A stretch of DNA of 32,000 nucleotides from Crocosphaera subtropica ATCC 51142 (GCF_000017845.1 NC_010546.1:4590001-4622000), one strand, 5' to 3'; positions 2,500 through 26,970 are shown, counted from the first letter of the stretch. The notes: generated by a model not told the origin, from the letters alone. Numbers and translations: made by a program.

Positions 2500-2934
2500 T
2501 GACTAATAATTAATTAAGTAGAAGCCAACTAATCTTGACTTCTAATCTTTATGTTTCCAGAAAACTTAAGTTATTGATTGGTTAAGGAAGTAATTTTAAC
2601 CGTGATTTTAGACGTTTTTGCACAGGTATAGAAAAAAATAAAACTATTGTCATAAAAATATGATAATAGTTACTTGAATAATTTATTTTATCGATAAATT
2701 ATTATAGATAATTATAGATGATTATCTTGTAAGTGAATCCTGAAAACACAGAGATAATGGGGTTATACAGCTTTTTTGTTAGTCATCAATTATCAAATAT
2801 TATTTCTATATGTACAAATTTGACATAACTTATTTATATTTTTTTAATATTATTGAGGTCGCTAATTTACGAAAAATTTTCTAGAATGTGAGCGATTCAT
2901 TCGCAAATTATTTACTTTTTGGAGATTTTAAATC

Positions 2935-3747
2935 GTGAAACATTTACTAAAGACATTTTCTGTAGCAATTGCTACAGGAATGGTTGCCTTAAGTTTTCCT
3001 AGTGTAGCTAATGCGTTTACCATGTCTTCTACTCCTGGCTTTTATGATGAAGCACTTGACGGTTATGACGACTTATCTGATAATCGGTTAGACCCAACTG
3101 ACTTAGGTTCATTAATACCCGGAGTAAACAAGCTCAGAGCCTCATTCTTTAACGACGGTGGAGTGGGTTTAGATTATTTTACCTTTACCGTAGATAAAGG
3201 ACAGGCCTTAAAAGCGATCGTTCTTAATGATTGGGAGGTAGACCCTTTTGAAGATATTGCTTTTATTGCTATTCAAAAGGGAGATACATTTACCTTTGAG
3301 TTCCCTAATGATAACGTAGCCGACGGATTAGGAGCTTTAGGACTGTTAGGTTGGTCCCATCTGAGAAGTACCCAAGTTGGTACTAATAAAATTTTAGAAG
3401 AGATGGCAATATCTAATCTAACACCAGAAAATGGTGGCATAGATGAGGCTTATTTTCAGGCAGAAGTAGATGAAGGTTTTTATGAAGGGCTAGACAACCA
3501 GGCTGCACTTGAACAGAGCCTGCGTGACTTAGCTTTACCTCGAAACTCGCAAGCAGGAGCAACAGGATTTGATAGACCTTTAAAAGCGGGAACCTATTCC
3601 ATGTGGTTAAGACAAGGTAATGCGAATCCGATTTCTGTAGAATTAGATTTTGAGACAGTCTCAGTACCTGAACCTACCGGGGTTCTTGGCACGACAGTGG
3701 CATTCGGTTTAATGACACTGCTTAGAAAAAAAAGCAAACGCTCCTAG
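2935..3747 (+). CDS. Secreted PEP-CTERM sorting-domain protein
   Basis: N-terminal signal peptide (MKHLLKTFSVAIATGMVALSFPSVANA). The C-terminus VPEPTGVLGTTVAFGLMTLLRKKSKRS is the canonical PEP motif, a TM helix and a basic cluster. GTG start with GGAG upstream. Confidence 0.8.
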   Translation: MKHLLKTFSVAIATGMVALSFPSVANAFTMSSTPGFYDEALDGYDDLSDNRLDPTDLGSLIPGVNKLRASFFNDGGVGLDYFTFTVDKGQALKAIVLNDWEVDPFEDIAFIAIQKGDTFTFEFPNDNVADGLGALGLLGWSHLRSTQVGTNKILEEMAISNLTPENGGIDEAYFQAEVDEGFYEGLDNQAALEQSLRDLALPRNSQAGATGFDRPLKAGTYSMWLRQGNANPISVELDFETVSVPEPTGVLGTTVAFGLMTLLRKKSKRS

Positions 3748-3922
3748 GTAACTTGAGTTCGCCATAAAACAAAATCATACAACACAGGTGTGGGGGGTCG
3801 GAGTCAACCATTCGCTCCTATTTCCTCCCTTTCTTAAACCGAACTCGACTAAGAGCGCATCTCTACTATTAACTTAATTCTACCAGATCAGTAACTATTC
3901 AGTGGTGAGAGAGTCAAATCCG

Positions 3923-4345
3923 ATGAATCAAAGAATTTTCAATGTATTAAACGGTTTTGGAGCCATATCTTTCGTTATTTTTGCTTGGCTACAGCATGAA
4001 GATAACAACGCCGAAATCTATTTCAACCCTAGCCTTGTAGATGTCTGGATGTGGATGATGTTCTATGGACTGGTAGCCCTACTATTTGGGTTGGCCATGA
4101 AGGGGCTTTTTCCGAAACTACTCTATCTCTTGTTTGCTTTTTTTTGTTCCTATCAATTGAGTGTTACCATACCTGGCTTTATGGCTAATTTAGCCAGTGG
4201 AAGTTTTAGCATAACCAATCATAGTATGTCCCCAATCAATCCCCAAGTAGAACTAACAAGGGAATTTTTCGGGGCTTTGATCGCATTAGCTGCAGTGGGT
4301 TTCTTGTGGTGGCAACGAGGTCAAGCCAGAAAAATCTTGAATTGA
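3923..4345 (+). CDS. Small four-helix membrane protein, TMEM220-like (family call tentative)
   Basis: ATG at 3923 (MNQRIFNVL...), with the track ORF starting at GTG 3902. It has hydrophobic helices and an AWLQHEDNN...W.W..Y pattern reminiscent of the transmembrane-220 family. It is co-oriented with eboA and ends 57 bp upstream of it. Confidence 0.5.
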   Translation: MNQRIFNVLNGFGAISFVIFAWLQHEDNNAEIYFNPSLVDVWMWMMFYGLVALLFGLAMKGLFPKLLYLLFAFFCSYQLSVTIPGFMANLASGSFSITNHSMSPINPQVELTREFFGALIALAAVGFLWWQRGQARKILN

Positions 4346-4402
4346 ATACTAGCACAAAATCATTCTGTTTCTTGATAAGTTTTTAGGCGAATTTAAACGA
4401 TT

Positions 4403-5308
4403 ATGATTGCAACTATTCAACACCCTACGGAAACATCAAAAACCAGCAACATTATTAACTATCTTCAAAACTGCTTAGAAAAGCAGTTACATCAGTCCGC
4501 CTTAACCTGGCTGAATTGGACAATAGAGAAGTTGTTAGACAACCCATCATCACACAGCTTATTCATCGGCTTTAGTCAAACCCCTCGCCAAGTGGGTAAA
4601 GCCAACTTAAGTTTGAGCCAAGAAGCGATAAGCACAGCCCGTCAACTGCGCCCAGGATGGATGCCAGAGTATTGGACCGTGGATCAAGCCGTGCGAACCC
4701 TGTTACTGCTCAATTTTCAGACAGACGAGCCTCAAGAGTATCTAGCCTCGGTTGAAAAGCTCTTTTCGGCTGCTGATGTGGCTGAACAGATCGCCTTGTA
4801 TCAAAGTCTTCCCGTATTGCCCTATCCCCAACAATTTAAAGCCAGAGCCATTGAAGGACTACGCACCAATATGGTAACGGTTTTTAATGCGATCGCATTG
4901 CATAATCCCTATCCGAAGGACTATTTTCAAGAAGCCGCTTGGAACCAAATGGTGCTTAAAGCCTTGTTTGTCGAGAGTCATCTCAGTCAAATTCAAGGGT
5001 TGGATTCCCGTGTTAATGCTAAATTAGCCAAAATGCTCTCTGACTATGCCCATGAGCGATGGTCTGCCGGTCGTGGCGTTAACCCCCAACTGTGGCGGGC
5101 TATGGGTTCATTTACCGAGGGTCAAATCCTCGCAGACTTAGAAAAGGTATTAAGGGAAGGGGAAACCTTTGAGCAGCAAGCGGCGGCTTTGGCTTGTTTT
5201 GGGGGTTCTGCAGAGGCACAAACTCTATTAGATAAGGTTCCGACTCTCAAACAAGCCATTGAACAGGGGCAACTCACCTGGGACAGTTTCAGTCAAACCC
5301 ATCTTTAA
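4403..5308 (+). CDS. eboA: EboA-family protein
   Basis: A 301-aa soluble helical protein in first position of a TatD, UbiA, DHQS-like, TIM-barrel, NPP gene string, which is the canonical ebo order. The call rests mainly on context and general resemblance. Confidence 0.7.
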   Translation: MIATIQHPTETSKTSNIINYLQNCLEKQLHQSALTWLNWTIEKLLDNPSSHSLFIGFSQTPRQVGKANLSLSQEAISTARQLRPGWMPEYWTVDQAVRTLLLLNFQTDEPQEYLASVEKLFSAADVAEQIALYQSLPVLPYPQQFKARAIEGLRTNMVTVFNAIALHNPYPKDYFQEAAWNQMVLKALFVESHLSQIQGLDSRVNAKLAKMLSDYAHERWSAGRGVNPQLWRAMGSFTEGQILADLEKVLREGETFEQQAAALACFGGSAEAQTLLDKVPTLKQAIEQGQLTWDSFSQTHL

Positions 5309-5362
5309 ATTAAGTCCCAACTACTTATAAAACTGATTCATAATAAAACAGGAGAAAATACG

Positions 5363-6289
5363 ATGCTAATTGACAATATGATGGTCATTGATCCCCACAT
5401 TCACATGACCTCACGCACTACTTATGACTATCTCGTTATGAAAGAGTATGGCGTAGTTGCTATCATTGAACCCTCATTTTGGCTAGGGCAACCCCGAACC
5501 CATGTGGGAACCTTTCAAGATTATTTTAATAGCTTGATCGGTTGGGAACGATTTCGAGCCGAACAATTTGGCATTCGCCATTACTGCACCATTTCCATTA
5601 ACCCCAAAGAAGCCAATAACGAACCCTTGGCCGAACAGGTGATGGAGTTGTTACCCTTGTATGCTTGCAAAGAAGGGGTGGTGGCCCTAGGAGAAGTGGG
5701 CTTTGATGATATGACCGAGGCCGAAGAAAAATATTTTCGCCTCCAGTTAAAATTGGCCAAGGAACTCGACAAACTGGTTTTAGTCCATACGCCCCACCGT
5801 AATAAAAAAGAAGGAACCAGTCGCAGCATGGACATTTGTCTAGAGGAAGGATTAGATCCGTTACAGGTGATTATTGATCACGCCAATGAAGAGACGGTAG
5901 ACGAAGTGCTGGATCGAGGTTTCTGGTGTGCCTTTTCTATTTATCCCAATACCAAAATGGGGAATGAGCGTATGGTAGAACTGGTGAAAAAATACGGCAG
6001 CGATCGCATTATTATCGATAGTGCAGCAGACTGGGGAATGAGCGATCCTCTGGCAGTGCCGAAAACCGCTCAACTGATGTTAGAAAGTAACATTCGTGAA
6101 GATCACGTTAAAGCAGTTTGTTATGGCAACGCCCTCAAAGCCTATGGTCAAAGTGGAGAAATGAAAGAAGAACACTGGCTCGAACCTACGGCGATCGATC
6201 AGCGACAACTCTATGAGGGTAACTCAGTGCTACGAGGACAAACTCCTATGGTAGAAAAACCCTTTCAAGAATCAATCATTATCCGTTAA
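5363..6289 (+). CDS. eboB: TatD-family metal-dependent hydrolase (EboB)
   Basis: N-terminal IDPHIHM (HxH metal-binding motif), and later GEVGFD and LVHTPH motifs typical of TatD/amidohydrolase folds. AGGAG RBS upstream. Confidence 0.85.
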   Translation: MLIDNMMVIDPHIHMTSRTTYDYLVMKEYGVVAIIEPSFWLGQPRTHVGTFQDYFNSLIGWERFRAEQFGIRHYCTISINPKEANNEPLAEQVMELLPLYACKEGVVALGEVGFDDMTEAEEKYFRLQLKLAKELDKLVLVHTPHRNKKEGTSRSMDICLEEGLDPLQVIIDHANEETVDEVLDRGFWCAFSIYPNTKMGNERMVELVKKYGSDRIIIDSAADWGMSDPLAVPKTAQLMLESNIREDHVKAVCYGNALKAYGQSGEMKEEHWLEPTAIDQRQLYEGNSVLRGQTPMVEKPFQESIIIR

Positions 6290-6291
6290 AA

Positions 6292-6317
6292 GTAGGGTGG
6301 GCAGTGCATCGCCTTAC
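6292..6317. repeat. Degenerate copy of the GTAGGGTGGGCA/TGCCCACCCTAC palindromic repeat family
   Basis: gtagggtgggcagtgcatcgccttac lies 3 nt after the eboB stop. The same family occurs at 24028..24052 and 27180..27204. Confidence 0.6.
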
Positions 6318-6370
6318 AGTAATGTCATAAACGTTCTTGCGACTGATTGCTATATTTTGAAGAGGTATTT

Positions 6371-7303
6371 ATGCAAACACAAGCAATTAACTCACCCTCG
6401 ATCTGGGGTTATTTACAGTTGATGCGACCGGCTAATATTGTGACAGCTTGGGCAGATATTTTAGTGGGTTATGCTGCTGCTGGTGGGATGAGTATGATAG
6501 CGGATGTTTGGCTCGGTAATTTGACCACCTACGAACTTACCCCCTTGTTCTGGCTACTGCTTGCTACCAGTGGGCTTTATGGAGGCGGTGTGGTCTTTAA
6601 CGATGTCTTTGACCTGGAATTAGATCGTGTTGAACGGCCAGAACGACCCCTTCCGAGGGGTGATGTTTCTCTCAGGGCAGCCATCATCTTAGGCAGTGGG
6701 TTATTAGGGATAGGCATTTTAGCGGCCCTCCAAGTAGGGATAGTTAGTGCCGTCATTGCGATCGCTGTTGCTATGGCGGCCTTAATTTATGATGGGTTCG
6801 GCAAGCATCATCAATGGTTAGGACCGTTGAATATGGGTTTATGCCGAGGGGGAAATCTGTTACTCGGTATCAGTGTTATCCCGATAATGCTATGGGAACG
6901 ATGGTTTTTAGTGTTTATTCCCATTGTTTATATCGCTGCGGTTACTGCAGTCAGTCAGGGGGAAGTCGAAGGGGGTAAACAGTCCACAGGATTATTGGCC
7001 ATTATCTTCGCTTTGTTGGTGGTAGCAGGTGTTTTAGGGTTAGGAACCCTAGACGTTTATGACTGGCGTTATTGTTTTCCTTTTGCTCTGTTATTTGCTG
7101 GGTTGGTGTTACCACCTTTTATTAAAGCTACCCAAGATCCTGCTCCCATAACGGTACAGAAGGCCGTGAAATCCGGTGTACTTTCCTTAATTGTCTTAGA
7201 TTCTGCGGTGGCTGCTGGTTTTGCCGGTTGGCTTTATGGTTTAGCGGTTCTCTCTCTGTTGGTCTTATCCCGTTTCTTAGGGAATATATTTGCTATCACC
7301 TAG
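6371..7303 (+). CDS. eboC: UbiA-family aromatic/polyprenyl transferase (EboC)
   Basis: A multi-pass membrane protein with NDVFDLELDRVERPERPLP, the first Asp-rich NDxxDxxxD UbiA motif. ATG at 6371 is preferred over the track's TTG at 6347. Confidence 0.85.
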   Translation: MQTQAINSPSIWGYLQLMRPANIVTAWADILVGYAAAGGMSMIADVWLGNLTTYELTPLFWLLLATSGLYGGGVVFNDVFDLELDRVERPERPLPRGDVSLRAAIILGSGLLGIGILAALQVGIVSAVIAIAVAMAALIYDGFGKHHQWLGPLNMGLCRGGNLLLGISVIPIMLWERWFLVFIPIVYIAAVTAVSQGEVEGGKQSTGLLAIIFALLVVAGVLGLGTLDVYDWRYCFPFALLFAGLVLPPFIKATQDPAPITVQKAVKSGVLSLIVLDSAVAAGFAGWLYGLAVLSLLVLSRFLGNIFAIT

Positions 7304-7416
7304 TTTATCCCCTCTTTAGAGCAATCAGTATATGAAAGCTTAATGATAAGTAAAAATTCTCTTCTTTTCTGTTTATGTTCTGACTCCTGTTTTCTCCAAT
7401 TTCTTAGAGGTTTCTT

Positions 7417-8655
7417 GTGCTTACCAGTTTTTCTAAACCCTTTAAATCATCTATTAATCAAGCTCTTAAATCCGATATTCATTCACCCATTCGACAACAG
7501 TTTGCCGTAACGTTTCAATACGATGTTTATTTCACCGAACAATTATTTCATCCGAACAATACTCTATTTGCTGAAATGATTGCTGCGGATGGTCAAAAAG
7601 GTCCAAGAAAGTTGGTTGTTATTGTTGATGATGGGTTACTCCCTCATCATCCCCATCTACTGGGCCAAATCGAGCAGTATAGCCAGAAATACCCTAACTT
7701 GCTAAAGTTAAAAGCTGCTCCCTTTGTTATTCCTGGAGGAGAAACCGCTAAAAATGAACCAGCCCTGATTAAATATTTACAAAAACAACTGAATCGCACA
7801 GGGTTATGTCGTCACTCCTACGTCGTAGGCATCGGAGGGGGTGCAGTGTTGGATCTGGTGGGTTATATAGCAGCCACCACCCATCGAGGGATTCGTCTGA
7901 TTCGGGTTCCTACAACGGTTTTGGCTCAGAATGACTCTGGGGTAGGGGTAAAAAATGGGGTCAATACCTTCGGCAAAAAGAACTTTTTAGGGACATTTGC
8001 TCCACCTTATGCGGTATTAAATGACTTTACCTTTTTAACCACCCTCGATGATCGGGACTGGCGAGGTGGGGTAGCAGAAGCGGTTAAGGTGGCTTTGATC
8101 AAGGATAGGAGTTTTTTTGAAGCCATAGAAGCACAAGCCAAAGCGATCGCTAATCGACACATGGCTCCGATGCAACAGGTCATTTATCGCTGCGCCCAAC
8201 TCCACATGGCTCATATTGCAGGACAAGGCGATCCCTTTGAAATGGGTTCCTCTCGCCCCCTCGATTTTGGCCATTGGGTAGCCCATCGTTTAGAGTCTCT
8301 CACCCATTATAATCTTCGTCACGGGGAAGCTGTCGCCATTGGCATCGCCCTGGACTGTACTTATTCTTATCTTTCTCAACTGCTTTCAAAAACCGACTGG
8401 GAGCGGATTTGTCACACCTTAAAAACTCTGGGGTTTGCCCTTTATGTACCAGAACTGTCGACCCATCTCGATCACCCTGATCATCCCGACTCTTTATTTG
8501 CCGGGTTAAAGGAATTTCAGGAACATTTAGGAGGTGAACTAACGTTGATGCTGCTTCAAGAAATTGGCACCGGGTTAGAAGTTCACCAGGTTAGTTTTGA
8601 TCGTTATCGAGAAGCGATCGCAATTCTCAAAACTCTGTCGTTAACATCGTCTTAA
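7417..8655 (+). CDS. eboD: 3-dehydroquinate-synthase-like sugar phosphate cyclase (EboD)
   Basis: GIGGGAVLDLVGYIAA (nucleotide-binding glycine loop), RVPTTVLAQNDSGVGVKNGVN and HGEAVAIG motifs of the DHQS/sugar-phosphate-cyclase superfamily. GTG start. Confidence 0.85.
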   Translation: MLTSFSKPFKSSINQALKSDIHSPIRQQFAVTFQYDVYFTEQLFHPNNTLFAEMIAADGQKGPRKLVVIVDDGLLPHHPHLLGQIEQYSQKYPNLLKLKAAPFVIPGGETAKNEPALIKYLQKQLNRTGLCRHSYVVGIGGGAVLDLVGYIAATTHRGIRLIRVPTTVLAQNDSGVGVKNGVNTFGKKNFLGTFAPPYAVLNDFTFLTTLDDRDWRGGVAEAVKVALIKDRSFFEAIEAQAKAIANRHMAPMQQVIYRCAQLHMAHIAGQGDPFEMGSSRPLDFGHWVAHRLESLTHYNLRHGEAVAIGIALDCTYSYLSQLLSKTDWERICHTLKTLGFALYVPELSTHLDHPDHPDSLFAGLKEFQEHLGGELTLMLLQEIGTGLEVHQVSFDRYREAIAILKTLSLTSS

Positions 8656-8661
8656 CTGAAA

Positions 8662-9894
8662 ATGTTGATTTATTCCACTAAAAACCGCGATCGCCCTTAC
8701 CATTTAACTTACTGTAGTAACATTCACCCCGGTGAAGACTGGGAAGATGTCTTTAAGAATTTACAAACTTATATCCCAAAACTGAAAAAAGAACTAGCTC
8801 CCGATGCACCTTTTGGCATTGGACTGCGTTTGGCTAATACAGCGAGTGAGGAACTGCTACGGGGAGATAACTTAGAGCAACTCAAGCATTGGTTAATGAT
8901 TGAAGACTGTTATGTTTTTACGTTAAACGGATTTCCTTACGGTGGCTTTCATCGTCAAGTGGTTAAAGATCACGTTTATCGTCCTGACTGGTCTGAAGGC
9001 GATCGCCTGACCTATACGGAGCGTTTGCTCAAAATACTTGCAGAATTGCTCCCAGAAGCCATAGATGGGGGCATTTCTACCGTACCTTTATCCTATAAAC
9101 CCTGGTGGCAGTCTAACCCCGATCACCTCCCAACGATTTTTGAGGGGAGTAGTTTTCATTTAGCCGAAATTGCTGCACAGATGGCTAAATTAGAAGAGGA
9201 AACAGGAAAGTTGCTACATTTGGATCTTGAACCCGAACCCGATGCCCTCCTAGAAAATACTGATGAAGCGATCGCTTTTTTTGAAAATTGGCTTTTACCG
9301 GTAGGGCAAGGATATCTTCAGCAAAAGTATGGGGTGACATCTACCCTGGCCGAGACATGGTTACGAAGACATATTCGAGTGTGTTATGATACCTGTCATT
9401 TTGCGGTGGAATATGAAGATCCGGCGATCGCCTTAGCTAAGTTCGAGAAGGCTGGTATTGCTATTGGTAAGTTTCAAATTAGTTCAGCCATTCGCATTCC
9501 TATTCCCCCAGAAAAAGCACAGCGACAAGTCTTAAAGCAACATCTAGAGCCGTTTGCTGAGTCTACCTATCTCCATCAGGTCATTGAAAAAGGGGCATCT
9601 GGAACCCTGAACCATTATCAGGATCTTCAGAATGCGCTCCTTGAGTTAATGAACACCTCTGCAACGGAATGGCGGACTCATTTCCATGTCCCTATTTTCA
9701 TCGATCGCTATCCTCCCTTTAATTCCACCCAAGATCATATTACTGACATTCTCCAACAGCTTGATCAAGCTCCCCAGTGCAACCACCTGGAAATTGAAAC
9801 CTACACCTGGGAAGTTTTGCCATCAGAGATGAAACTCGATATTTTTACCTCCATTAAACGGGAATATGAATGGATTTTAAACGCTTTATCCTAA
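8662..9894 (+). CDS. eboE: Xylose-isomerase-like TIM-barrel protein (EboE)
   Basis: A 410-aa ORF starting 6 nt after the eboD stop. The sequence type (YCSNIHPGE..., LDLEPEP..., CYDTCHFAVE) and its position match EboE. Confidence 0.8.
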   Translation: MLIYSTKNRDRPYHLTYCSNIHPGEDWEDVFKNLQTYIPKLKKELAPDAPFGIGLRLANTASEELLRGDNLEQLKHWLMIEDCYVFTLNGFPYGGFHRQVVKDHVYRPDWSEGDRLTYTERLLKILAELLPEAIDGGISTVPLSYKPWWQSNPDHLPTIFEGSSFHLAEIAAQMAKLEEETGKLLHLDLEPEPDALLENTDEAIAFFENWLLPVGQGYLQQKYGVTSTLAETWLRRHIRVCYDTCHFAVEYEDPAIALAKFEKAGIAIGKFQISSAIRIPIPPEKAQRQVLKQHLEPFAESTYLHQVIEKGASGTLNHYQDLQNALLELMNTSATEWRTHFHVPIFIDRYPPFNSTQDHITDILQQLDQAPQCNHLEIETYTWEVLPSEMKLDIFTSIKREYEWILNALS

Positions 9895-9918
9895 TAATAA
9901 AATTTTGGTTTACATAAG

Positions 9919-11313
9919 ATGAAAAGAACAGTTGTTATCAATGTGGTTGGTTTGAGTTCACGATTAATAGGGGAGCAAACCCCCAACCTCAAACGCTGGA
10001 TCAGTCAAGGACAGCTTGCTACCATTGAGCCGGTTCTCCCGGCCGTTACTTGTACCGCCCAAAGTACCTATTTAACGGGACAATGGCCGAACAAAACGGG
10101 TATTGTGGGCAATGGTTGGTACTTTCGGGATGAATGTGAAGTCAAGTTTTGGAGACAGTCTAATAAGCTGGTACAAGCTCCTAAAATTTGGGATGTAGCC
10201 CGAAAAATCGATCCCTCTTTTACCTGCGCTAATTTATTTTGGTGGTACAATATGCATTCTTCGGTGGACTATGGGGTAACGCCTCGCCCTATGTATCCGG
10301 CCGATGGGCGCAAAATTCCTGATATTTACACTCAACCGGCTGATTTTCGCCCCCAACTTCAGGCTGAACTCGGACAGTTTCCCCTGTTTAAATTTTGGGG
10401 GCCAGCAACGTCTATTGAGTCAAGTCAGTGGATTGCTGAATCAGCCAAATGGGTAGAAAATCGGGTGAGTCCTACGTTAACGCTTATTTATTTACCTCAC
10501 CTCGATTATTGTCTACAAAAAATGGGTTGTGATGTAAAGCAAGTGAGTCAAGATTTAAAAGAAATTGATGATCTATGTGGAGAATTAATCAATTTCTACG
10601 AAGAAAGAGGGGTTCAGGTGATTATTCTCTCTGAATATGGCATTACCTCTGTCAATCAACCCATTCACATTAACCGCATCTTGAGAGAAGCCGGACTATT
10701 ACAGGTTCGTGAGGAATTGGGGTTAGAACTGCTGGATGCTGGTGCAAGTCAAGCGTTTGCCGTGGCTGATCATCAACTGGCTCATGTCTATGTTAATGAA
10801 CCGACGATGCTACTTAGAGTGAAAGGTTTGTTAGAAGAGATAGACGGTATTGATTGGGTACTCGATGAGACGGGTAAGCAAAAATACCATCTTGATCATG
10901 AGCGTGCCGGGGAACTGGTAGCAGTGGCTAAACCGGAGGCATGGTTTACTTACTATTACTGGCTAGAGGATCAATACGCTCCCGATTTTGCTAGAACCGT
11001 TGATATTCATCGTAAACCGGGTTACGACCCCGTAGAATTATTTATTGATCCTAAAATTCCCATTCCTCAGGGCAAAATTGCCTTAAAGCTATTGCAGAAG
11101 AAATTAGGATTTCGCTATCTGATGGATGTGATTCCGTTAGATGCTAATTTGGTCAAGGGTTCTCACGGCCACCTCCCCCAGTCTCCTCAAGATTGTCCTG
11201 TGTTTATCACCCATCAGTCACACTTATTACAACAAGACACTATCAACTCAGTGGATGTATTCCAACTGATGCTTAAGCATCTGGGTAGGGAGATGATTGA
11301 AAGTCCCCTTTGA
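9919..11313 (+). CDS. eboF: Alkaline-phosphatase-superfamily nucleotide pyrophosphatase/phosphodiesterase (EboF)
   Basis: N-terminal VVINVVGLS...PAVTCTAQSTYLTGQWPNKTGIVGNGWY (catalytic Thr region of the type I phosphodiesterase/NPP family), and later YLPHLDY and GSHG metal-ligand motifs. Confidence 0.85.
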   Translation: MKRTVVINVVGLSSRLIGEQTPNLKRWISQGQLATIEPVLPAVTCTAQSTYLTGQWPNKTGIVGNGWYFRDECEVKFWRQSNKLVQAPKIWDVARKIDPSFTCANLFWWYNMHSSVDYGVTPRPMYPADGRKIPDIYTQPADFRPQLQAELGQFPLFKFWGPATSIESSQWIAESAKWVENRVSPTLTLIYLPHLDYCLQKMGCDVKQVSQDLKEIDDLCGELINFYEERGVQVIILSEYGITSVNQPIHINRILREAGLLQVREELGLELLDAGASQAFAVADHQLAHVYVNEPTMLLRVKGLLEEIDGIDWVLDETGKQKYHLDHERAGELVAVAKPEAWFTYYYWLEDQYAPDFARTVDIHRKPGYDPVELFIDPKIPIPQGKIALKLLQKKLGFRYLMDVIPLDANLVKGSHGHLPQSPQDCPVFITHQSHLLQQDTINSVDVFQLMLKHLGREMIESPL

Positions 11314-11364
11314 CAAACGCCCCAATTTTCTTTACTCCGAACCCCTAACACCCAACTCAGGTTG

Positions 11365-11784
11365 TTACACTTCCCAGAAGTCAAATGCACCGTCTGGCAA
11401 TTGGGCAAGCACTCGATCAAAGGCTTCCTCATCTACATATCGTCTCAGGACAGTAGCGACATCTCTAATTGCTGTTTCAGTAGAAAAATTATGTTCCCGC
11501 CGTAATGATTTTACTTCCTTCGTCATCTCTTCACGAGTTTCAAAAGGCTTTTGAGGCTCATTCGTGTTCCAGTCCGTGACAAAAAGTGCCTTCAAACAAA
11601 TCGGCAATACATTGGCAAAAGCGATGGCATCTTCTGTCGAAAGCCTACGCCGAAATGTCTGAAAGACCCCTTGGGTCATTGTATAAGTAACGTGTGTACT
11701 CCAGAGTCCTGCTGTGTCCCGTGCATCTATCAAATAGCGATAGAAGTCATCTGAAGCACGCTGGTATTCTACGGGGACTGGCAT
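11365..11784 (-). CDS. DUF2267-like protein (tentative family)
   Basis: A 139-aa soluble ORF convergent with eboF. It has two helical half-repeats, each ending in an LP-containing segment (ANVLPICL, LAQLPDGAFDFW), as in DUF2267. Confidence 0.5.
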   Translation of the reverse strand: MPVPVEYQRASDDFYRYLIDARDTAGLWSTHVTYTMTQGVFQTFRRRLSTEDAIAFANVLPICLKALFVTDWNTNEPQKPFETREEMTKEVKSLRREHNFSTETAIRDVATVLRRYVDEEAFDRVLAQLPDGAFDFWEV

Positions 11785-11957
11785 AATAAACTCTTCTGTT
11801 TTACGTTTGATTTACTCTTGCATAATCCGTTAAATCAATGGTAGAAATTAGGTTGATTAGGGAGATGGGCAGCATTTGCTATCCATCTCTTCCCAAGAGA
11901 CTTGTTTACCCGTTAAGCGAACAAATGTTCACTTCAGGTGTGTACTTTGGAGAAAAT

Positions 11958-12923
11958 TTAGTTCGAGTGTTGACGACGACGTAGACTGTTGCCCAAGAAG
12001 AACAATGCTGCGATCGCTATTAAACCAACCGTGGTGGATGATTCAGGAACGGATACCCTCGTAATGGTCACACGAGCAATGCCATTGGGATAAAGATTCG
12101 CATCATTAAAGTCTAAATTAGCAAAATCTATCTCAAAATTAGCGGGTCTATTGAGGAAATTGGCAAAAGGATCGTTAACAGTGGTGTTCACTCCATTTTC
12201 GTCCGCTCCTTGGTTGCCTCCGGTTTGTCCCCCAGGAATTCCAAATAACCCATTACCAGCAGAGGTATCAAAATCATTGATTTCGGTTCCTGCGTCGTCC
12301 ACAGTTCCAGGAAGTCCGATTTCAAAGGAAATTGAGGTTTCTTCTCCTGTCAATAACGTGGTTAAACTATGGGCTAAAGGATTACCATTAGCAACATAAT
12401 AATCACTGGTAGGAAGAACCATCGATACATAAGAAAAATAACGATTAGAATCATCGGGGGTTATTTTAAATAGATTCATAACCGATGTTCCTGGTGCAAT
12501 AGGACTTCCCCCAATCGAACCATCCACACGAGTTCCCACTTGATTCGATACGAAAATGCCACTGATATCATCACTAGGATCACCAGGAGTGCCATTGTCA
12601 TCGATATAGGTTAAATTATTGAGAAAGTCTTGGGATATAGTGGTAGCATCACCATCTTCGGCAATTTGCTCTAAACCTCGCTGCGACGATAGTCCCCCGT
12701 TATAACTATCAAAACTACCATCATGAAATCCCACCCACACAGGGGTCAGTGCAACACCCCCCAAAGGACTAAGGTTTTCGACTTCAACCTTCAGGGTCAA
12801 TGCTTGAGTAGCTGATGCTGTGGTAGCAACCGAACCAAGGGTTAAAACGGTTAACAATGCTTTGCTATTTTTGAATAAGTTCATCATGGCAGAATTCACC
12901 ATTGAGTTGATAATCTTCCCCAT
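11958..12923 (-). CDS. Secreted spondin-N-like domain protein with a PEP-CTERM-type anchor
   Basis: Signal peptide; the true start may be one of the Met residues at positions 8, 13 or 14 of the ORF. VEVENLSP.GGVALTPVWVGFHDGSFD resembles bacterial spondin-domain proteins. The C-terminus VPESSTTVGLIAIAALFFLGNSLRRRQ is a PEP-variant motif, a TM helix and an Arg cluster. Confidence 0.65.
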   Translation of the reverse strand: MGKIINSMVNSAMMNLFKNSKALLTVLTLGSVATTASATQALTLKVEVENLSPLGGVALTPVWVGFHDGSFDSYNGGLSSQRGLEQIAEDGDATTISQDFLNNLTYIDDNGTPGDPSDDISGIFVSNQVGTRVDGSIGGSPIAPGTSVMNLFKITPDDSNRYFSYVSMVLPTSDYYVANGNPLAHSLTTLLTGEETSISFEIGLPGTVDDAGTEINDFDTSAGNGLFGIPGGQTGGNQGADENGVNTTVNDPFANFLNRPANFEIDFANLDFNDANLYPNGIARVTITRVSVPESSTTVGLIAIAALFFLGNSLRRRQHSN

Positions 12924-16202: not shown

Positions 16203-17057
16203 ATGAAAATAGGCATTATTGGGTTAGGATTAATCGGGGGTTCCCTAGGGTTTGATTTACGCAATTGCGGACATATTATTTATGGAGTTTCTCGTAAAGA
16301 AAGTACCTGCCAACGAGCCATAGAAAGGGAAGTAGTTGATCATGCAAGTATTAATATTAATTCTCTATCCACTGTAGACCTAATTTTTATTTGTACTCCC
16401 ATTACTTTAATTTCTTCAACTTTAAAACAGTTAACTTCCAATTTAAGACCAGAAGTGATTATTACTGATGTGGGATCGGTAAAAACAGCTATTGTCAAAG
16501 AATGTGAGCCATTATGGTCTAATTTTGTCGGAGGACATCCCATGGCAGGAACTGCGGAACAAGGTATAGAAGCAGCGCAAAAAAACTTATTTAAAGCTGC
16601 GCCTTATGTCATTACTCCCACAGAAAACACCCCAAAAAATAGCATCAAAATTTTAGAACAGTTAGCTCAGTCTTTAGGATCAAAGGTTTATACTTGTTCC
16701 CCAGAAATTCATGACCAAGCAGTGGCTTGGATTTCCCATTTACCTGTCATGGTTAGTGCTAGTTTAATCGCTGCTTGTGTGGGTGAAAAAGAGAAAACCG
16801 TGTTAAACTTAGCCCAACAATTAGCCAGTTCTGGGTTCAAAGATACCAGTCGTGTCGGCGGAGGAAACCCCGAATTAGGGTTAATGATGGCTCAATACAA
16901 TAAAACTGGCTTATTGCACAGTTTGCAGGGTTATCGTCAGCAACTCGATGAGGTTATTGAATACATTAATAGAGAAGAATGGGACTCCCTAGAACAATTA
17001 TTGATGATGACACAAAAAAAGCGACCGCCGTTTATTGGAGGGCAAAAAAATTCTTAG
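16203..17057 (+). CDS. tyrA: Prephenate/arogenate dehydrogenase
   Basis: An N-terminal Rossmann motif IGIIGLGLIGGS, then GSVK and GGHPMAG motifs typical of TyrA-family dehydrogenases. Cyanobacterial enzymes are usually arogenate-specific. Confidence 0.9.
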   Translation: MKIGIIGLGLIGGSLGFDLRNCGHIIYGVSRKESTCQRAIEREVVDHASININSLSTVDLIFICTPITLISSTLKQLTSNLRPEVIITDVGSVKTAIVKECEPLWSNFVGGHPMAGTAEQGIEAAQKNLFKAAPYVITPTENTPKNSIKILEQLAQSLGSKVYTCSPEIHDQAVAWISHLPVMVSASLIAACVGEKEKTVLNLAQQLASSGFKDTSRVGGGNPELGLMMAQYNKTGLLHSLQGYRQQLDEVIEYINREEWDSLEQLLMMTQKKRPPFIGGQKNS

Positions 17058-17516: not shown

Positions 17517-17544
17517 ATATGTAGTGTATCAGTTACTCTTAACG

Positions 17545-19248
17545 ATGACAGATCATCCCCTCGGTGCGGTTGTTCAAGGTTCCCTTTCACAAGGGTTAGA
17601 AGTTCGCTTACATTCTGATGTGTCCGTCGAACAAATGCGAGTGGGAAAATTTTTGGTGGTGCAAGGAGTGCGATCGCGGTTTTTCTGTTTATTAACCGAT
17701 GTCTCCCTGGGAACCGCTAACCCGCGCATTTTAGCCAACCCTCCCAGTTTTCAAGACACTTTTATGAGAGATGTATTGTCTGGGAGTGCTACCTATGGCA
17801 ATGTAGAACTTGCACCCATGTTAATGTTTACCCCTACCGACGAAGAAGAAAACCATAATTCTCACACTGAAGATACTTCTTTAGGATCGTTTCAAGCACA
17901 AACCAACGCTGATATTGAACTGCTTCCCGTCAAAACCATTCCTACCCATTTTAGTCAAGTTTATGAAGCGTCAGAAAGAGATTTTCGAGCGGTTTTTGGT
18001 TGGGAAGATGACCCTACACGGCGCAATTTTGCCATCGGAAAACCTTTAGATATGGATGTACCCATTTGTATTGATTTAGATCGCTTTGTTGAACGGAGTA
18101 ATGGCGTTTTTGGGAAGTCAGGAACGGGTAAATCTTTTTTAACTCGTTTGTTAATTTCTGGGATTATTCGTAAACAAGCTGCCGTTAATTTAATGTTTGA
18201 TATGCACTCAGAATATGGGTGGGAAGCGATGAAAGAAGGGAAAGAAGTTTCTACGGTTAAAGGGTTACGTCAGTTGTTTCCTGGACAAGTCGAAATTTAT
18301 ACTTTAGATCCTGAGTCGACTAAAAGAAGAGGGGTTAGTGATGCTCAAGAATTATATTTAAGTTACGATCAAATTGATATTGAGGATATTCGTTTAGTGG
18401 GTCATGAATTAGGAATTTCTGAGGCAAGTTTAGACAATGCTAATATTTTAGAAGCGGAATATGGTAAGTCATGGATTATGCAATTATTAAACATGACCAA
18501 TGAAGATATTAAGCTATTTTGTCAAGAAAAACAGGGTCATGCTGGTTCAATTATGTCCCTTCAAAGAAAGTTAATGCGGTTAGATAATTTGAAATATTTA
18601 CGCACTGCTTGTCCTCATAATTATATTAATCAAGTGTTAGAATCTTTGGATGCAGGAAAGCACGTCGTGATTGAGTTTGGATCACAATCTAATATGCTGT
18701 CTTATATGTTAGCTACGAATATGATTACTAGGCGTATTCATGGCAGTTATGTCAAGAAAGCTGAGAAATTTTTACAGACAAAAAGTCCAAGCGATCGCCC
18801 TAGACAATTAGTGATTACTATTGAAGAAGCACACCGCTTTTTAGACTCTAAAATTGTCCATCAAACTATCTTTGGAACCATTGCTAGGGAGATGCGAAAA
18901 TATTTCGTTACCTTGTTAATTGTGGATCAAAGACCATCAGGAATTGATAACGAAGTCATGTCACAAGTAGGGACAAGAATCACCTGTTTACTAAACGATG
19001 AAAAGGATATTGATGCTATTTTTACAGGAGTTTCTGGGGGACAAAATTTAAGGTCAGTGTTAGCAAAGTTAGATTCTAAACAACAAGCTTTAATCTTAGG
19101 TCATGCTGTTCCGATGCCTGTTGTTATTAGAACTCGTGCTTATGATCAACAATTCTATGCAGAAATCGGGGAAACGGATTGGTCTGAATTACCTGATGAA
19201 GAGGTGTTTGCAGCAGCTGAAACTGCTAGAGCAGAATTAGGTTTTTAA
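17545..19248 (+). CDS. HerA/FtsK-superfamily (DUF87-type) ATPase with an N-terminal HAS-barrel-like domain
   Basis: Walker A GKSGTGKSFL, Walker B/DEAH-like LVITIEEAHRFL, and VDQRPSGID (the HerA/FtsK Arg-finger region). The N-terminal beta-rich segment GLEVRL...VGKFLVV resembles a HAS barrel. ATG at 17545 is preferred over GTG at 17524. Confidence 0.8.
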   Translation: MTDHPLGAVVQGSLSQGLEVRLHSDVSVEQMRVGKFLVVQGVRSRFFCLLTDVSLGTANPRILANPPSFQDTFMRDVLSGSATYGNVELAPMLMFTPTDEEENHNSHTEDTSLGSFQAQTNADIELLPVKTIPTHFSQVYEASERDFRAVFGWEDDPTRRNFAIGKPLDMDVPICIDLDRFVERSNGVFGKSGTGKSFLTRLLISGIIRKQAAVNLMFDMHSEYGWEAMKEGKEVSTVKGLRQLFPGQVEIYTLDPESTKRRGVSDAQELYLSYDQIDIEDIRLVGHELGISEASLDNANILEAEYGKSWIMQLLNMTNEDIKLFCQEKQGHAGSIMSLQRKLMRLDNLKYLRTACPHNYINQVLESLDAGKHVVIEFGSQSNMLSYMLATNMITRRIHGSYVKKAEKFLQTKSPSDRPRQLVITIEEAHRFLDSKIVHQTIFGTIAREMRKYFVTLLIVDQRPSGIDNEVMSQVGTRITCLLNDEKDIDAIFTGVSGGQNLRSVLAKLDSKQQALILGHAVPMPVVIRTRAYDQQFYAEIGETDWSELPDEEVFAAAETARAELGF

Positions 19249-19273
19249 GTTTTTAATACGAGTAAATAAATTT

Positions 19274-19654
19274 CTAACGGTTATAAGGTTGAATTATTTT
19301 CAGATTAGGAATAACTCTATAATGTTTAACATTAAAAGTACAAAGTGTCCCGTTATTACTAATAACACAATGAGCAATTAAAGCATCTAGTAAACCCACA
19401 CCATCAGATAAATGATACTGACTAAAATCTAATAAAGCTTGGTTGCAATCACTCTCAGTTAACCAGATAATTGATAATGGTGAAATTAATTTAAACACTT
19501 GATTAACTTGTTGTTTATTTTTTGCATTTTGAATAAGTTCCATGACGACAAAACCTGGAATACTTGGGATATCTTGCAACGTTGTAAACCATGTAATTGC
19601 AGGTTGATAACCTCTAAGAACATCAATTAAGATATCAGTATCTAGTACATACAT
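19274..19654 (-). CDS. vapC: PIN-domain toxin (VapC family)
   Basis: MYVLDTDILIDVLRG carries the first acidic residue of the PIN fold. It is 126 aa and starts 9 nt downstream of a small antitoxin-like ORF. Confidence 0.85.
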   Translation of the reverse strand: MYVLDTDILIDVLRGYQPAITWFTTLQDIPSIPGFVVMELIQNAKNKQQVNQVFKLISPLSIIWLTESDCNQALLDFSQYHLSDGVGLLDALIAHCVISNNGTLCTFNVKHYRVIPNLKIIQPYNR

Positions 19655-19663
19655 AAAACTAAT

Positions 19664-19924
19664 TTATATCTGGTGACGATGTTCTGCTTCATAACGTATT
19701 TGACGTGCATATTCTTGACTGTCTTTAATATCAGAACGACAATTAATTAAACCTTCTTGTTGCCAATAAGCGATTAAGTCTTTTCCTGTTTTCGGTGTCT
19801 CATTTAAGACTTTTCTAGCTGAAAGAAGATGTAAAATATAGTCTGATAAAGATAAGTTAATTTGGGATGCTTCTTGAGATAATTCTTGTTCTAATTCTTT
19901 AGGTATTTCAATATTAATTTCCAT
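19664..19924 (-). CDS. Type II antitoxin partner of VapC
   Basis: An 86-aa acidic protein immediately upstream of vapC in the same orientation. It shows the N-terminal LSLSDYILHLL and C-terminal YWQQEGLI...DS.EYAR pattern common in cyanobacterial PIN-associated antitoxins. Confidence 0.7.
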   Translation of the reverse strand: MEINIEIPKELEQELSQEASQINLSLSDYILHLLSARKVLNETPKTGKDLIAYWQQEGLINCRSDIKDSQEYARQIRYEAEHRHQI

Positions 19925-19974
19925 TATTTTTACCTTTTGAATCTAATATCCTAATTATAACAAAAAGTCTTAAA

Positions 19975-20862
19975 CTAATTATAAAAATTTTCTATTCTTG
20001 AATTGATTTTATCAATATATTTTTTTTCTTTTTCAATTCCGATATAATGACGATTGAGATTTAAACAAGCGATCGCAGTGGAACCTGATCCCATAAAAGG
20101 ATCTAAAACTATCATATTTTCCTGACTACTTGCTCTGATAATTCTCTCCATTAATTTAACGGGTTTTTGCGTCGGATGAAACCTTTTTTCTTCATAAAAA
20201 TTGATATCATTCCAAACATCTGTTACACCCATTTCTATATTAAAGGTTGCAGAAATATCTTCATAAGGATAATTAAATTCTAGAATATCTTGTAATTTTT
20301 CCCACATTTCCTTAGTCGGAACTTGTGCCAAGATATTATTACCTGTGTACAGTGACCACATTCCCCCACCATTAGATTTAACTCCCAATCTTTTGTTAAT
20401 TTCTAATGCAGTTAACCCTAATTCTTTTTGTCTTTGTTTAAGAAACTGTTTAATAAAAGGACGACTATTATAAATAAAAAACAATAAACTTTCTGTCACA
20501 TTAGGAAACATCTTATAATTTTTAGTTGCCCTTCCACTAATAGCTTTCATTCCTTTATCTATAATAATTTGTTGTCGAAAATTAAACCCTAAATCAATGA
20601 TGGGTTCGTATAAATAAAATAAGTTTCTTAAGTAACCAAATAAATATAAACTACCTGATAACTTTATCACTCTAGAAATTTCAGAAAGCCACTGTAAACA
20701 CCATTCTTTATAATCTTCTTCTGTACGCCATTGATAGTCCCATTTTTGTTGAATCACTTTCCAATAAGGTGGATCGAGAATAATTAAATCAACACTTTTA
20801 TCAGGTAATTCTTGTAATATTTCAGTACAGTCTCGCTGTATAATTTGATTCAAATATTTCAT
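19975..20862 (-). CDS. Beta-class DNA methyltransferase (N6-adenine or N4-cytosine), solitary
   Basis: Catalytic motif IV ILDPPYW lies near the N-terminus and the AdoMet motif I DPFMGSGSTA near the C-terminus, a permuted beta-class order. No ORF that could be a restriction endonuclease is adjacent. Confidence 0.85.
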   Translation of the reverse strand: MKYLNQIIQRDCTEILQELPDKSVDLIILDPPYWKVIQQKWDYQWRTEEDYKEWCLQWLSEISRVIKLSGSLYLFGYLRNLFYLYEPIIDLGFNFRQQIIIDKGMKAISGRATKNYKMFPNVTESLLFFIYNSRPFIKQFLKQRQKELGLTALEINKRLGVKSNGGGMWSLYTGNNILAQVPTKEMWEKLQDILEFNYPYEDISATFNIEMGVTDVWNDINFYEEKRFHPTQKPVKLMERIIRASSQENMIVLDPFMGSGSTAIACLNLNRHYIGIEKEKKYIDKINSRIENFYN

Positions 20863-26103: not shown

Positions 26104-26970
26104 ATGTCAATTATTACCGGAAAAACGAAATTATTAGGCATCATTGGTCATCCCGTCGAACATTCCTTATCCCCTGTCATGCAAAATGCAGAAATTAAAC
26201 GGTTAGGGGTTGACTACATTTATATTCCTTTTCCTGTCAAACCTGAAAACTTAGAAACTGCTTTAGATGGCTTTGCAACCATAGGCGTGATGGGTTTCAA
26301 CGCAACCATCCCCCATAAACAAGCTATCATCCCCCTACTCTCTGAAGTTACCACAACCGCGAAATTAGTGGGAGCGGTGAACACCGTTTGGCGCACAGAA
26401 ATAGGTTGGAAAGGCACAAACACCGACGTTATTGGCTTTGTCACCCCCCTAAAAGCTTTAAACCGTGACTGGAACACCATTAAACCCATTATCCTCGGAA
26501 ATGGAGGCGCAGCCAGGGCCGTAGTGGTAGGGTTAGCGGAATTAGGTTGCCGTGATATTTGCGTTGTGGGACGAGATAAGGACAAGTTAGGTCAATTTAA
26601 GCAAAGTTGGGACACTAGCGAGCTTCAAGCCTCTATAACCGTTCATTCCTGGGATGAATTATCGGGAATGGTATCAGAAAGCCAGTTAATTGTTAACACC
26701 ACACCTATCGGGATGTTTCCTCATACTCAGAATTCTCCCGTTGACAGTAATTTATGGGAAAAATTGCCTAATAATGCGATCGCTTATGACTTAATTTATA
26801 ATCCCAGTCCTACCCAGTTTCTAAAAGATGCAAAACAGCAAGGTTTAACGGTTATTGATGGTTTAGATATGTTAGTGTATCAAGGGGCTGCAGCCTTAGA
26901 AATTTGGTTACAACAACCCGTCTCAGCAACAGTAATGAGTGAAGCTTTGAAACAATCTCTTTTTTCCTAA
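26104..26970 (+). CDS. aroE: Shikimate 5-dehydrogenase
   Basis: LLGIIGHPVEHSLSPVMQNA, GFNATIPHK and GNGGAARAV motifs are canonical AroE. Confidence 0.92.
   Translation: MSIITGKTKLLGIIGHPVEHSLSPVMQNAEIKRLGVDYIYIPFPVKPENLETALDGFATIGVMGFNATIPHKQAIIPLLSEVTTTAKLVGAVNTVWRTEIGWKGTNTDVIGFVTPLKALNRDWNTIKPIILGNGGAARAVVVGLAELGCRDICVVGRDKDKLGQFKQSWDTSELQASITVHSWDELSGMVSESQLIVNTTPIGMFPHTQNSPVDSNLWEKLPNNAIAYDLIYNPSPTQFLKDAKQQGLTVIDGLDMLVYQGAAALEIWLQQPVSATVMSEALKQSLFS

Follow-up and report, generated by a model that had tools for sequence, protein, structure and literature searches.

A TMEM220-like membrane protein gene heads the ebo cluster of Crocosphaera subtropica ATCC 51142 and adjoins ebo clusters in Bacteroidota

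In the genome of Crocosphaera subtropica (formerly Cyanothece sp.) ATCC 51142, a stretch of 32,000 nt (NC_010546.1:4590001-4622000; hereafter the window, with coordinates counted from its first letter) carries at 3923-11313 seven co-directional open reading frames (ORFs) on the + strand, which according to the ORF table are a gene for a TMEM220-like four-helix membrane protein (Pfam family PF15071), followed by eboA to eboF. On balance it seems that this locus is a seven-gene operon, which judged by homology would encode a pathway of the thallusin/saccharoquinoline type, with the TMEM220-like protein as an accessory membrane component. The ebo cluster, its presence in ATCC 51142 and its occurrence without scytonemin (scy) genes is already known, and it is the recurrent linkage between ebo and PF15071 genes, and with it a variant seven-gene architecture, that appears to be new as far as the literature searched goes.

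Composition of the locus and its predicted product

The proteins were assigned to families with Pfam and NCBIfam hidden Markov model (HMM) scans against curated cut-offs, which every one of the seven genes passes. The features of the locus are:

3748..3922, + strand: non-coding leader upstream of the TMEM220-like gene; 175 nt, conserved, with an inverted repeat
3923..4345, + strand: TMEM220-like membrane gene (cce_4451); 140 aa; PF15071 63.9 bits, cut-off 27
4403..5308, + strand: eboA; 301 aa; EboA_family NF035937 334.8 bits, cut-off 320; Pfam PF28008 EboA on an identical contig
5363..6289, + strand: eboB, TatD-like metal-dependent hydrolase; 308 aa; TatD_DNase PF01026 65.8 bits, cut-off 27
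6371..7303, + strand: eboC, UbiA-type membrane prenyltransferase; 310 aa; NF035940 equivalog 400.8 bits, cut-off 250
7417..8655, + strand: eboD, DHQS-like sugar phosphate cyclase; 412 aa; PRK06203 604.3 bits, cut-off 333; DHQ_synthase and DHQS_C domains
8662..9894, + strand: eboE, xylose-isomerase-like TIM barrel; 410 aa; NF035939 TIM_EboE equivalog 512.3 bits, cut-off 250
9919..11313, + strand: eboF, phosphodiesterase of the NPP / alkaline-phosphatase superfamily; 464 aa; Phosphodiest PF01663 219.2 bits, cut-off 23

The gaps between these genes are, in order, 57, 54, 81, 113, 6 and 24 nt, with ATG starts at 3923 and 6371 that were chosen over upstream starts at 3902 and 6347 on the basis of homologue lengths and of gene calls on identical public contigs. 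The membrane protein matches, at 100% identity, cce_4451 of ATCC 51142, which GenBank gives as 147 aa from GTG 3902; homologues and independent gene calls favour ATG 3923 and 140 aa. Motifs are present in EboB (HIH, residue 12), EboC (the Asp-rich NDVFDLELD, residue 77), EboD (GGGAVLD, residue 140, and RVPTT, residue 163) and EboF (TCTAQ, residue 44), and EboB is 86-99% identical to EboB from other cyanobacterial ebo clusters. EboA, EboB, EboC, EboD, EboE and EboF are thus all encoded here, in A-B-C-D-E-F order, in one direction and with short spacers. The original prediction for this DNA had claimed a complete eboABCDEF cluster with a co-oriented TMEM220-like four-helix gene 57 nt upstream, and both claims stood, the motifs, order, gaps and coordinates being as it had given them. 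Its expectation that HMM searches would recover the Ebo-specific families was borne out as well, with the EboA, EboC and EboE models all above cut-off, and likewise TatD, DHQ_synthase, Phosphodiest and TMEM220.

The ebo cluster in ATCC 51142 is not a new discovery, because it is listed in the paper that named the ebo ('eustigmatophyte-bacterial operon') cluster (Yurchenko 2016, PMC5133447), where the strain is among the carriers of ebo and is said to have one more copy of eboB at a distance; the label 'orphan', which had been attached to the pathway, was overstated, since the ebo operon of Cyanothece ATCC 51142 was already named there. In the ABCDEF type of ebo in Bacteroidota and Cyanobacteria (Yurchenko 2016), these six families also occur in this order and orientation; the ATCC 51142 locus differs from it in that a PF15071 membrane gene heads the putative operon, a difference seen here at the level of the genes. 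Homologous Ebo proteins are encoded in another cyanobacterium, Nostoc punctiforme, where the ebo genes are embedded among those for scytonemin (Npun_F5232-5236; Klicki 2018, PMC6282210). In contrast to that locus, the 32-kb window holds no scyA-F family among its other ORFs, as had been claimed earlier, and no tyrA, dsbA or glycosyltransferase gene is inserted in the cluster, and eboD, which is separate and opposite in N. punctiforme, lies in-line in ATCC 51142. Scytonemin export cannot be the role of the ebo genes in the context of this window. The EDB cluster of Pseudomonas fluorescens NZI7 (nematode repellence) also has six ebo homologues, with three extra genes and a gene order different from that of ATCC 51142, according to PMC12904256. 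A literature search on the locus tags cce_4451 to cce_4456 returned no paper.

As for the product of the cluster, the original prediction held that the molecule had not been defined, which is out of date. EboD is a new sugar phosphate cyclase that forms the cyclitol DEI from mannose-6-phosphate, published in 2024 (Tanoeyadi 2024, as summarised in PMC12904256), and thallusin/saccharoquinoline was assigned to ebo in 2026 (Kallscheuer et al. 2026 preprint, 10.64898/2026.05.21.724671). In the latter study, which spans four phyla, ebo genes were present in 27 of 27 thallusin producers and in 0 of 8 non-producers, and thallusin was lost from Stieleria maiorica when eboB, eboC, eboE or eboF was deleted singly. 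L-aspartate was shown by isotope labelling to label the quinoline core, and EboC orthologues from three phyla farnesylated a 6,7,8-trihydroxyquinaldic acid ester, which extends earlier work on Ubi-297 (PMC9235831). Thallusin is secreted by Nostoc punctiforme and Nostoc PCC 7120, and not by Synechocystis, according to the supplement of the preprint.

It is probable that the six ebo genes of ATCC 51142 act as their orthologues do, which for Crocosphaera is argued by homology, and EboC of this strain is predicted by analogy to be a farnesyltransferase acting on hydroxyquinaldic acid. In such a pathway, EboD would make DEI from mannose-6-phosphate, as described in the literature, after which DEI and L-aspartate would be converted to trihydroxyquinaldic acid, probably via some combination of EboA, EboB, EboE and EboF. 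The membrane-bound EboC would then attach a farnesyl group to the trihydroxyquinaldic acid (as reported for its orthologues), and this farnesyl would be cyclised to a drimane; the cyclisation and an oxidative rearrangement would give saccharoquinoline and then thallusin. The product would be secreted and would chelate Fe(III), as it does according to the literature, and it could act as a signal.

A different explanation was put forward by Klicki 2018 (PMC6282210) and restated by the original prediction, namely that a membrane-anchored prenylated cyclitol(-phosphate) ferries metabolites across the cytoplasmic membrane. On this view the TMEM220-like protein would be its flippase or partner. In favour of the model, ebo mutants of N. 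punctiforme keep the scytonemin monomer in the cytoplasm (PMC6282210), the cluster unites a cyclase, a membrane prenyltransferase and two phosphoester hydrolases, and a small four-helix membrane protein with a polar cluster that in the model faces outward would suit a flippase-like role. The carrier lipid has nevertheless become the weaker model, since the farnesyl acceptors of EboC are hydroxyquinaldic acids and not a cyclitol, its orthologues from three phyla acting on hydroxylated quinolines. It also has to contend with the entry of aspartate into the quinoline core and with the loss of a soluble, secreted meroterpenoid upon ebo deletion (10.64898/2026.05.21.724671), as well as with the failure of Klicki et al. 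to find a lipid-linked intermediate (PMC6282210). The scytonemin-export phenotype of 2018 is possibly indirect, according to the authors of the preprint (10.64898/2026.05.21.724671). A carrier lipid is now an unlikely product of these genes.

Linkage of TMEM220-like genes to ebo clusters

The surroundings of eboA were surveyed at 90 loci, of which 10 came from GTDB species genomes and 80 from a metagenome scan with an EboA profile; six frames were scanned with a PF15071-type HMM and the ebo genes were mapped by tblastn. A PF15071 gene is present at 11 of these 90 loci, and at 7 of the 27 complete clusters with at least 450 nt on both sides. Every match lies within 170 nt of an ebo gene, directly adjoining it and on the same strand as its operon, while no PF15071 match was found in the remaining 460 kb of flanking DNA of the surveyed loci. 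The gene takes the following positions, in each case on the same strand ('MAG' being a metagenome-assembled genome):

Crocosphaera sp. BG0011 and C. chwakensis (L018, L019): PF15071 gene upstream of eboA, as in the window
Two Ferruginibacter MAGs (L026, L027): ahead of eboA, with an 11-nt overlap into its ORF; 92 bits with Pfam
Metagenome contigs L088 and L089: upstream of eboA; HMM scan
Chitinophagaceae MAG L025: between eboC and a convergent eboF; HMM scan
Marine or saline contigs L072, L076, L078 and L080: downstream of eboF; HMM scan

A profile of the Bacteroidota-type PF15071 proteins gave 2,057 clusters, with Cyclobacterium, Segetibacter, Flavihumibacter, Pedobacter, Puia and Ilyomonas as the named genera. 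When three named Bacteroidota genomes were chosen from the homologue list blind to gene context, the PF15071 gene was found to abut an ebo cluster in all three, again on the same strand:

Flavihumibacter profundi: PF15071 gene 11 nt before eboA
Pedobacter frigoris: PF15071 gene 3 nt before eboA
Cyclobacterium sp.: PF15071 gene 47 nt after eboF

In independent lineages, therefore, ebo clusters have a co-oriented PF15071 neighbour, at three different positions. In a neighbour-joining tree, the Crocosphaera protein falls in a verrucomicrobial subfamily (A, with an extra loop IYxNPSxxD) and all Bacteroidota-type ebo-linked PF15071 proteins form a second subfamily (B). As the copies in Crocosphaera and in Bacteroidota fall into separate subfamilies, the adjacency to ebo arose more than once. 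Its occurrence in three positions, two subfamilies and two phyla argues for a functional association, and for one that came about or was reshuffled several times, as opposed to one chance event passed on by descent. It is likely that the membrane gene is functionally tied to the six ebo genes. The earlier suggestion of an unrecognised seventh component stands in so far as PF15071 genes flank ebo in at least five arrangements and in two phyla, but the gene is not recurrent across cyanobacteria: among them it was found next to ebo in the Crocosphaera genomes only, and Leptolyngbyaceae-type clusters are without it. Neither Yurchenko 2016 nor the 2026 preprint with its supplement uses the term TMEM220, and extra genes in or near ebo operons were outside the scope of the analysis of Yurchenko et al. 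2016 (PMC5133447).

The non-coding DNA of the locus bears on the same point. The leader at 3748-3922 is 87-88% identical across three Crocosphaera genomes, which is on par with coding DNA, and the 57-nt spacer between the TMEM220-like gene and eboA is 81-84% identical, compared to just 11-63% for the eboB-eboC and eboC-eboD spacers. The leader contains a 7-bp inverted repeat (GAGTTCG ... CGAACTC) with arms approximately 78 nt apart, and its motifs are unique within the window and not those of a repeat element. An Rfam scan of the whole window, leader included, gave no match, and an RNA fold of 3748-3925 (z = 0.13 versus shuffled sequence) gave no sign of structured RNA. Judged by its sequence and position, the leader is probably the promoter or 5' untranslated region of the operon and would have a regulatory function. 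Since the leader and the eboA spacer are conserved like coding DNA, they fit a promoter ahead of the membrane gene with read-through into eboA, although this is not proof.

It could also be that the Crocosphaera TMEM220-like gene has nothing to do with eboA, and that its conservation in three genomes is a matter of close kinship. In fact, the region is syntenic in the three Crocosphaera genomes, including an unrelated upstream gene for a PEP-CTERM-type protein, and because the whole region is syntenic the three genomes are not independent observations. Moreover, the other sampled members of subfamily A are not linked to ebo, and other cyanobacterial ebo clusters are without a PF15071 gene. Such a coincidence is nevertheless doubtful, as a very rare family would then have to adjoin ebo by chance in at least four other, Bacteroidota-type arrangements with gaps of -11 to about +50 nt, where the chance of one gene lying next to the cluster is estimated at ~10^-3 in a genome of about 4,000-5,000 genes. 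The conservation of the 57-nt eboA spacer and the leader, which the other spacers of the cluster do not share, speaks against it as well.

Several other variants of gene arrangement were seen among the loci. In Cyclobacterium sp. SYSU L10401 (L110, 911-11468), co-directional genes extend the ebo cluster on both sides, with genes for an AP_endonuc_2 TIM barrel and a GFO_IDH_MocA oxidoreductase before eboA, and for TMEM220 and a PfkB-family sugar kinase after eboF. At nine loci (L037-L041, L047, L049, L062 and L083), eboD is divergent and upstream of eboA, with the rest in the order A-B-C-E-F and no PF15071 gene nearby, a variant that resembles the arrangement in N. punctiforme (Klicki 2018, PMC6282210). 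Four others (L051, L053, L057 and L084) have 2-4 kb of non-ebo DNA between eboC and eboD, which may be the glycosyltransferase/tyrA/dsbA insert of scytonemin-type loci. The flanks of PF15071-free ebo clusters were also inspected for an analogous, non-homologous partner, and the single candidate, a partial, Ala-rich small multi-helix ORF (L102), was rejected as unrelated.

Verrucomicrobial TMEM220 genes of subfamily A have a context of their own, being divergent from a gene for a low-molecular-weight phosphatase (LMWPc), with no ebo gene within 10 kb; in two of these loci a gene for a GH10 xylanase follows with a 4-nt overlap. The contexts are:

L004: 9468-11532
L016: 575-2629
L005: 9541-10498
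L008: 3111-4040

The membrane protein and its possible role

The TMEM220-like protein belongs to PF15071 by its profile score, which is above the gathering score, and by its four-helix membrane topology. The AlphaFold2 model, made with 29 homologues, has a pLDDT of 90.8 and a pTM of 0.83, with helices at residues 3-28, 38-59, 65-91 and 107-139. Residues that are invariant in the subfamily-A alignment include Q24, D27, Y33, D40, W44, G85, N89, E110, R113, E114 and G117, of which E110, R113, E114 and G117 are part of a 'VELTREFFG' motif; the Bacteroidota-type alignment, too, shows no variation at the D, E-x-x-R-E and G positions. The positive-inside rule would put the N terminus, the K-rich loop at 60-65 and the R/K-rich C terminus in the cytoplasm, and in the model the invariant polar cluster of D27, E110, R113 and E114 would be situated at the non-cytoplasmic membrane interface.

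The family is rare: a set of 1.84 billion proteins yields 307 representatives at 50% identity (E <= 0.001). Gene fusions in PF15071 are not informative, a few long members having uninformative extensions, and secondary Pfam matches (PMT, YwiC, Acyl_transf_3 and Wzy_C) were rejected, because they are weak, differ from one member to the next and are of the kind that a hydrophobic composition tends to give. Animal TMEM220 is a Golgi protein, for which human work gives just a secretion or Golgi-morphology phenotype (PMC6979480). The Crocosphaera protein resembles it in its significant Pfam match, its four transmembrane helices and its similar size; unlike animal TMEM220, it is bacterial and encoded in a presumed biosynthetic operon, and the human work offers no biochemical activity to transfer.

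With regard to what the protein does, a role at the outer leaflet is suggested by the invariant polar cluster, because this is predicted to lie at the non-cytoplasmic membrane face. The TMEM220-like protein is probably a lineage-variable accessory, and it would handle the amphipathic prenylated product or an intermediate there, in export, release or late modification. Export or release would be most likely and a catalytic role less likely, with low confidence in any specific activity.

A catalytic role would mean that the protein is a membrane-embedded enzyme for a missing step towards thallusin, i.e. the protonation-initiated cyclisation of farnesyl to a drimane, or the conversion of saccharoquinoline to thallusin. 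What invites this idea is that the invariant acidic residues D27, E110 and E114 cluster at one membrane face in the model. Small integral-membrane meroterpenoid cyclases (Pyr4 type) and four-helix EXPERA sterol isomerases use a buried Asp or Glu. Furthermore, the preprint found no dedicated terpene cyclase for its thallusin scheme, and no enzyme for ring cleavage (10.64898/2026.05.21.724671). Against this stands that most ebo clusters have no adjoining PF15071 gene, that PF15071 members in Verrucomicrobia and animals occur without adjoining ebo genes, and that the protein has no detectable likeness in fold or sequence to a known cyclase or isomerase (best PDB hit at E 0.9; sigma-2/EXPERA at E 7.8, TM 0.41). 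An enzyme of this kind is very improbable. A bolder proposal, which is itself speculative and unlikely, is that PF15071/TMEM220 constitutes an unrecognised class of small membrane proteins acting on prenylated aromatic or cyclitol-derived metabolites, which in ebo operons would supply the missing membrane step of thallusin formation, either the cyclisation to drimane or, late in the pathway, an oxidative rearrangement with release on the outer side.

Several observations weigh against the reading of the locus as a seven-gene thallusin-type operon with the TMEM220-like protein as its accessory component. The link to thallusin comes from a preprint, and production by ATCC 51142 is a prediction from homology. 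Likewise, it is the spacing of the seven genes that suggests their co-transcription, and promoter and terminator scans of 2700-12000 gave counts equal to those in shuffled sequence. About three quarters of the complete ebo clusters sampled have no adjoining PF15071 gene, and none was found beside the closest non-Crocosphaera cyanobacterial clusters (L020-L023 and L028-L032, from Leptolyngbyaceae and relatives), nor did the homologue and profile searches turn up any named cyanobacterium other than Crocosphaera among the TMEM220-like homologues. Seen from the side of the membrane protein, the nearest non-Crocosphaera homologues (P0006 and P0009, with 60% and 53% identity) have no ebo genes in the fetched context, the same is true for four verrucomicrobial-type homologues (P0016, P0017, P0022 and P0027), and among the contexts fetched for these homologues of the Crocosphaera protein only that of Crocosphaera chwakensis repeats the arrangement. 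Because the literature describes confirmed producers (Maribacter, Nostoc) with six-gene operons, the TMEM220-like protein cannot be a universal requirement for thallusin, unless it is encoded elsewhere in the genomes of the producers. Finally, a Foldseek search of PDB with the AlphaFold2 model gave nothing better than E 0.9, and a profile search of the PDB sequences with the TMEM220-like protein gave no match.

Surroundings of the locus and significance

On either side of the ebo block lies a gene for a probable PEP-CTERM-type protein, at 2935-3747 (+) and 11958-12923 (-); such proteins are secreted and sorted by an exosortase. The product of the first scores 21.2 bits with the cyanobacterial PEP-CTERM model TIGR04155, which is below the cut-off of 21.6, and 16.6 bits with TIGR02595, which is above the cut-off of 16; the product of the second has a spondin domain and a weak PEP-CTERM end. 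Cyanoexosortase B has been linked to scytonemin production in Nostoc, according to a 2025 paper.

Other neighbours in the window are DUF2267, proS, tyrA, a HerA-like ATPase, an adenine methyltransferase, a TPR protein, aroE, an ArsA/Get3-type ATPase and ilvB. The tyrA gene (prephenate/arogenate dehydrogenase, 16203-17057) and aroE (shikimate dehydrogenase, 26104-26970) lie 5 and 15 kb downstream of ebo. The ebo/scy locus of some Nostocales has a tyrA gene within it (Yurchenko 2016, PMC5133447); in the window, unrelated genes lie between ebo and both tyrA and aroE, which look like housekeeping copies. The genes for the HerA-like ATPase (17524-19248, +) and the adenine-specific DNA methyltransferase (19975-20862, -) fall in a stretch of ~30-36% G+C content at 17524-20862, which may be a defence or restriction-modification islet.

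As the cluster was known before and a product was proposed for it very recently, the cluster itself opens no new question. The thallusin model of 2026 is, however, without a terpene cyclase, a ring-cleavage enzyme and an exporter, and a rare four-helix protein that travels with ebo time and again is an obvious candidate for one of the membrane steps still to be assigned. The linkage to ebo is also the first genomic-context clue to the TMEM220 family, and if TMEM220 acts on prenylated metabolites, this would provide the first biochemical lead for animal TMEM220. For Crocosphaera, a marine unicellular nitrogen-fixer, the gene content predicts that it makes an iron-binding algal morphogen, which, if true, would matter for iron acquisition and for signalling between phytoplankton and bacteria in the open ocean.

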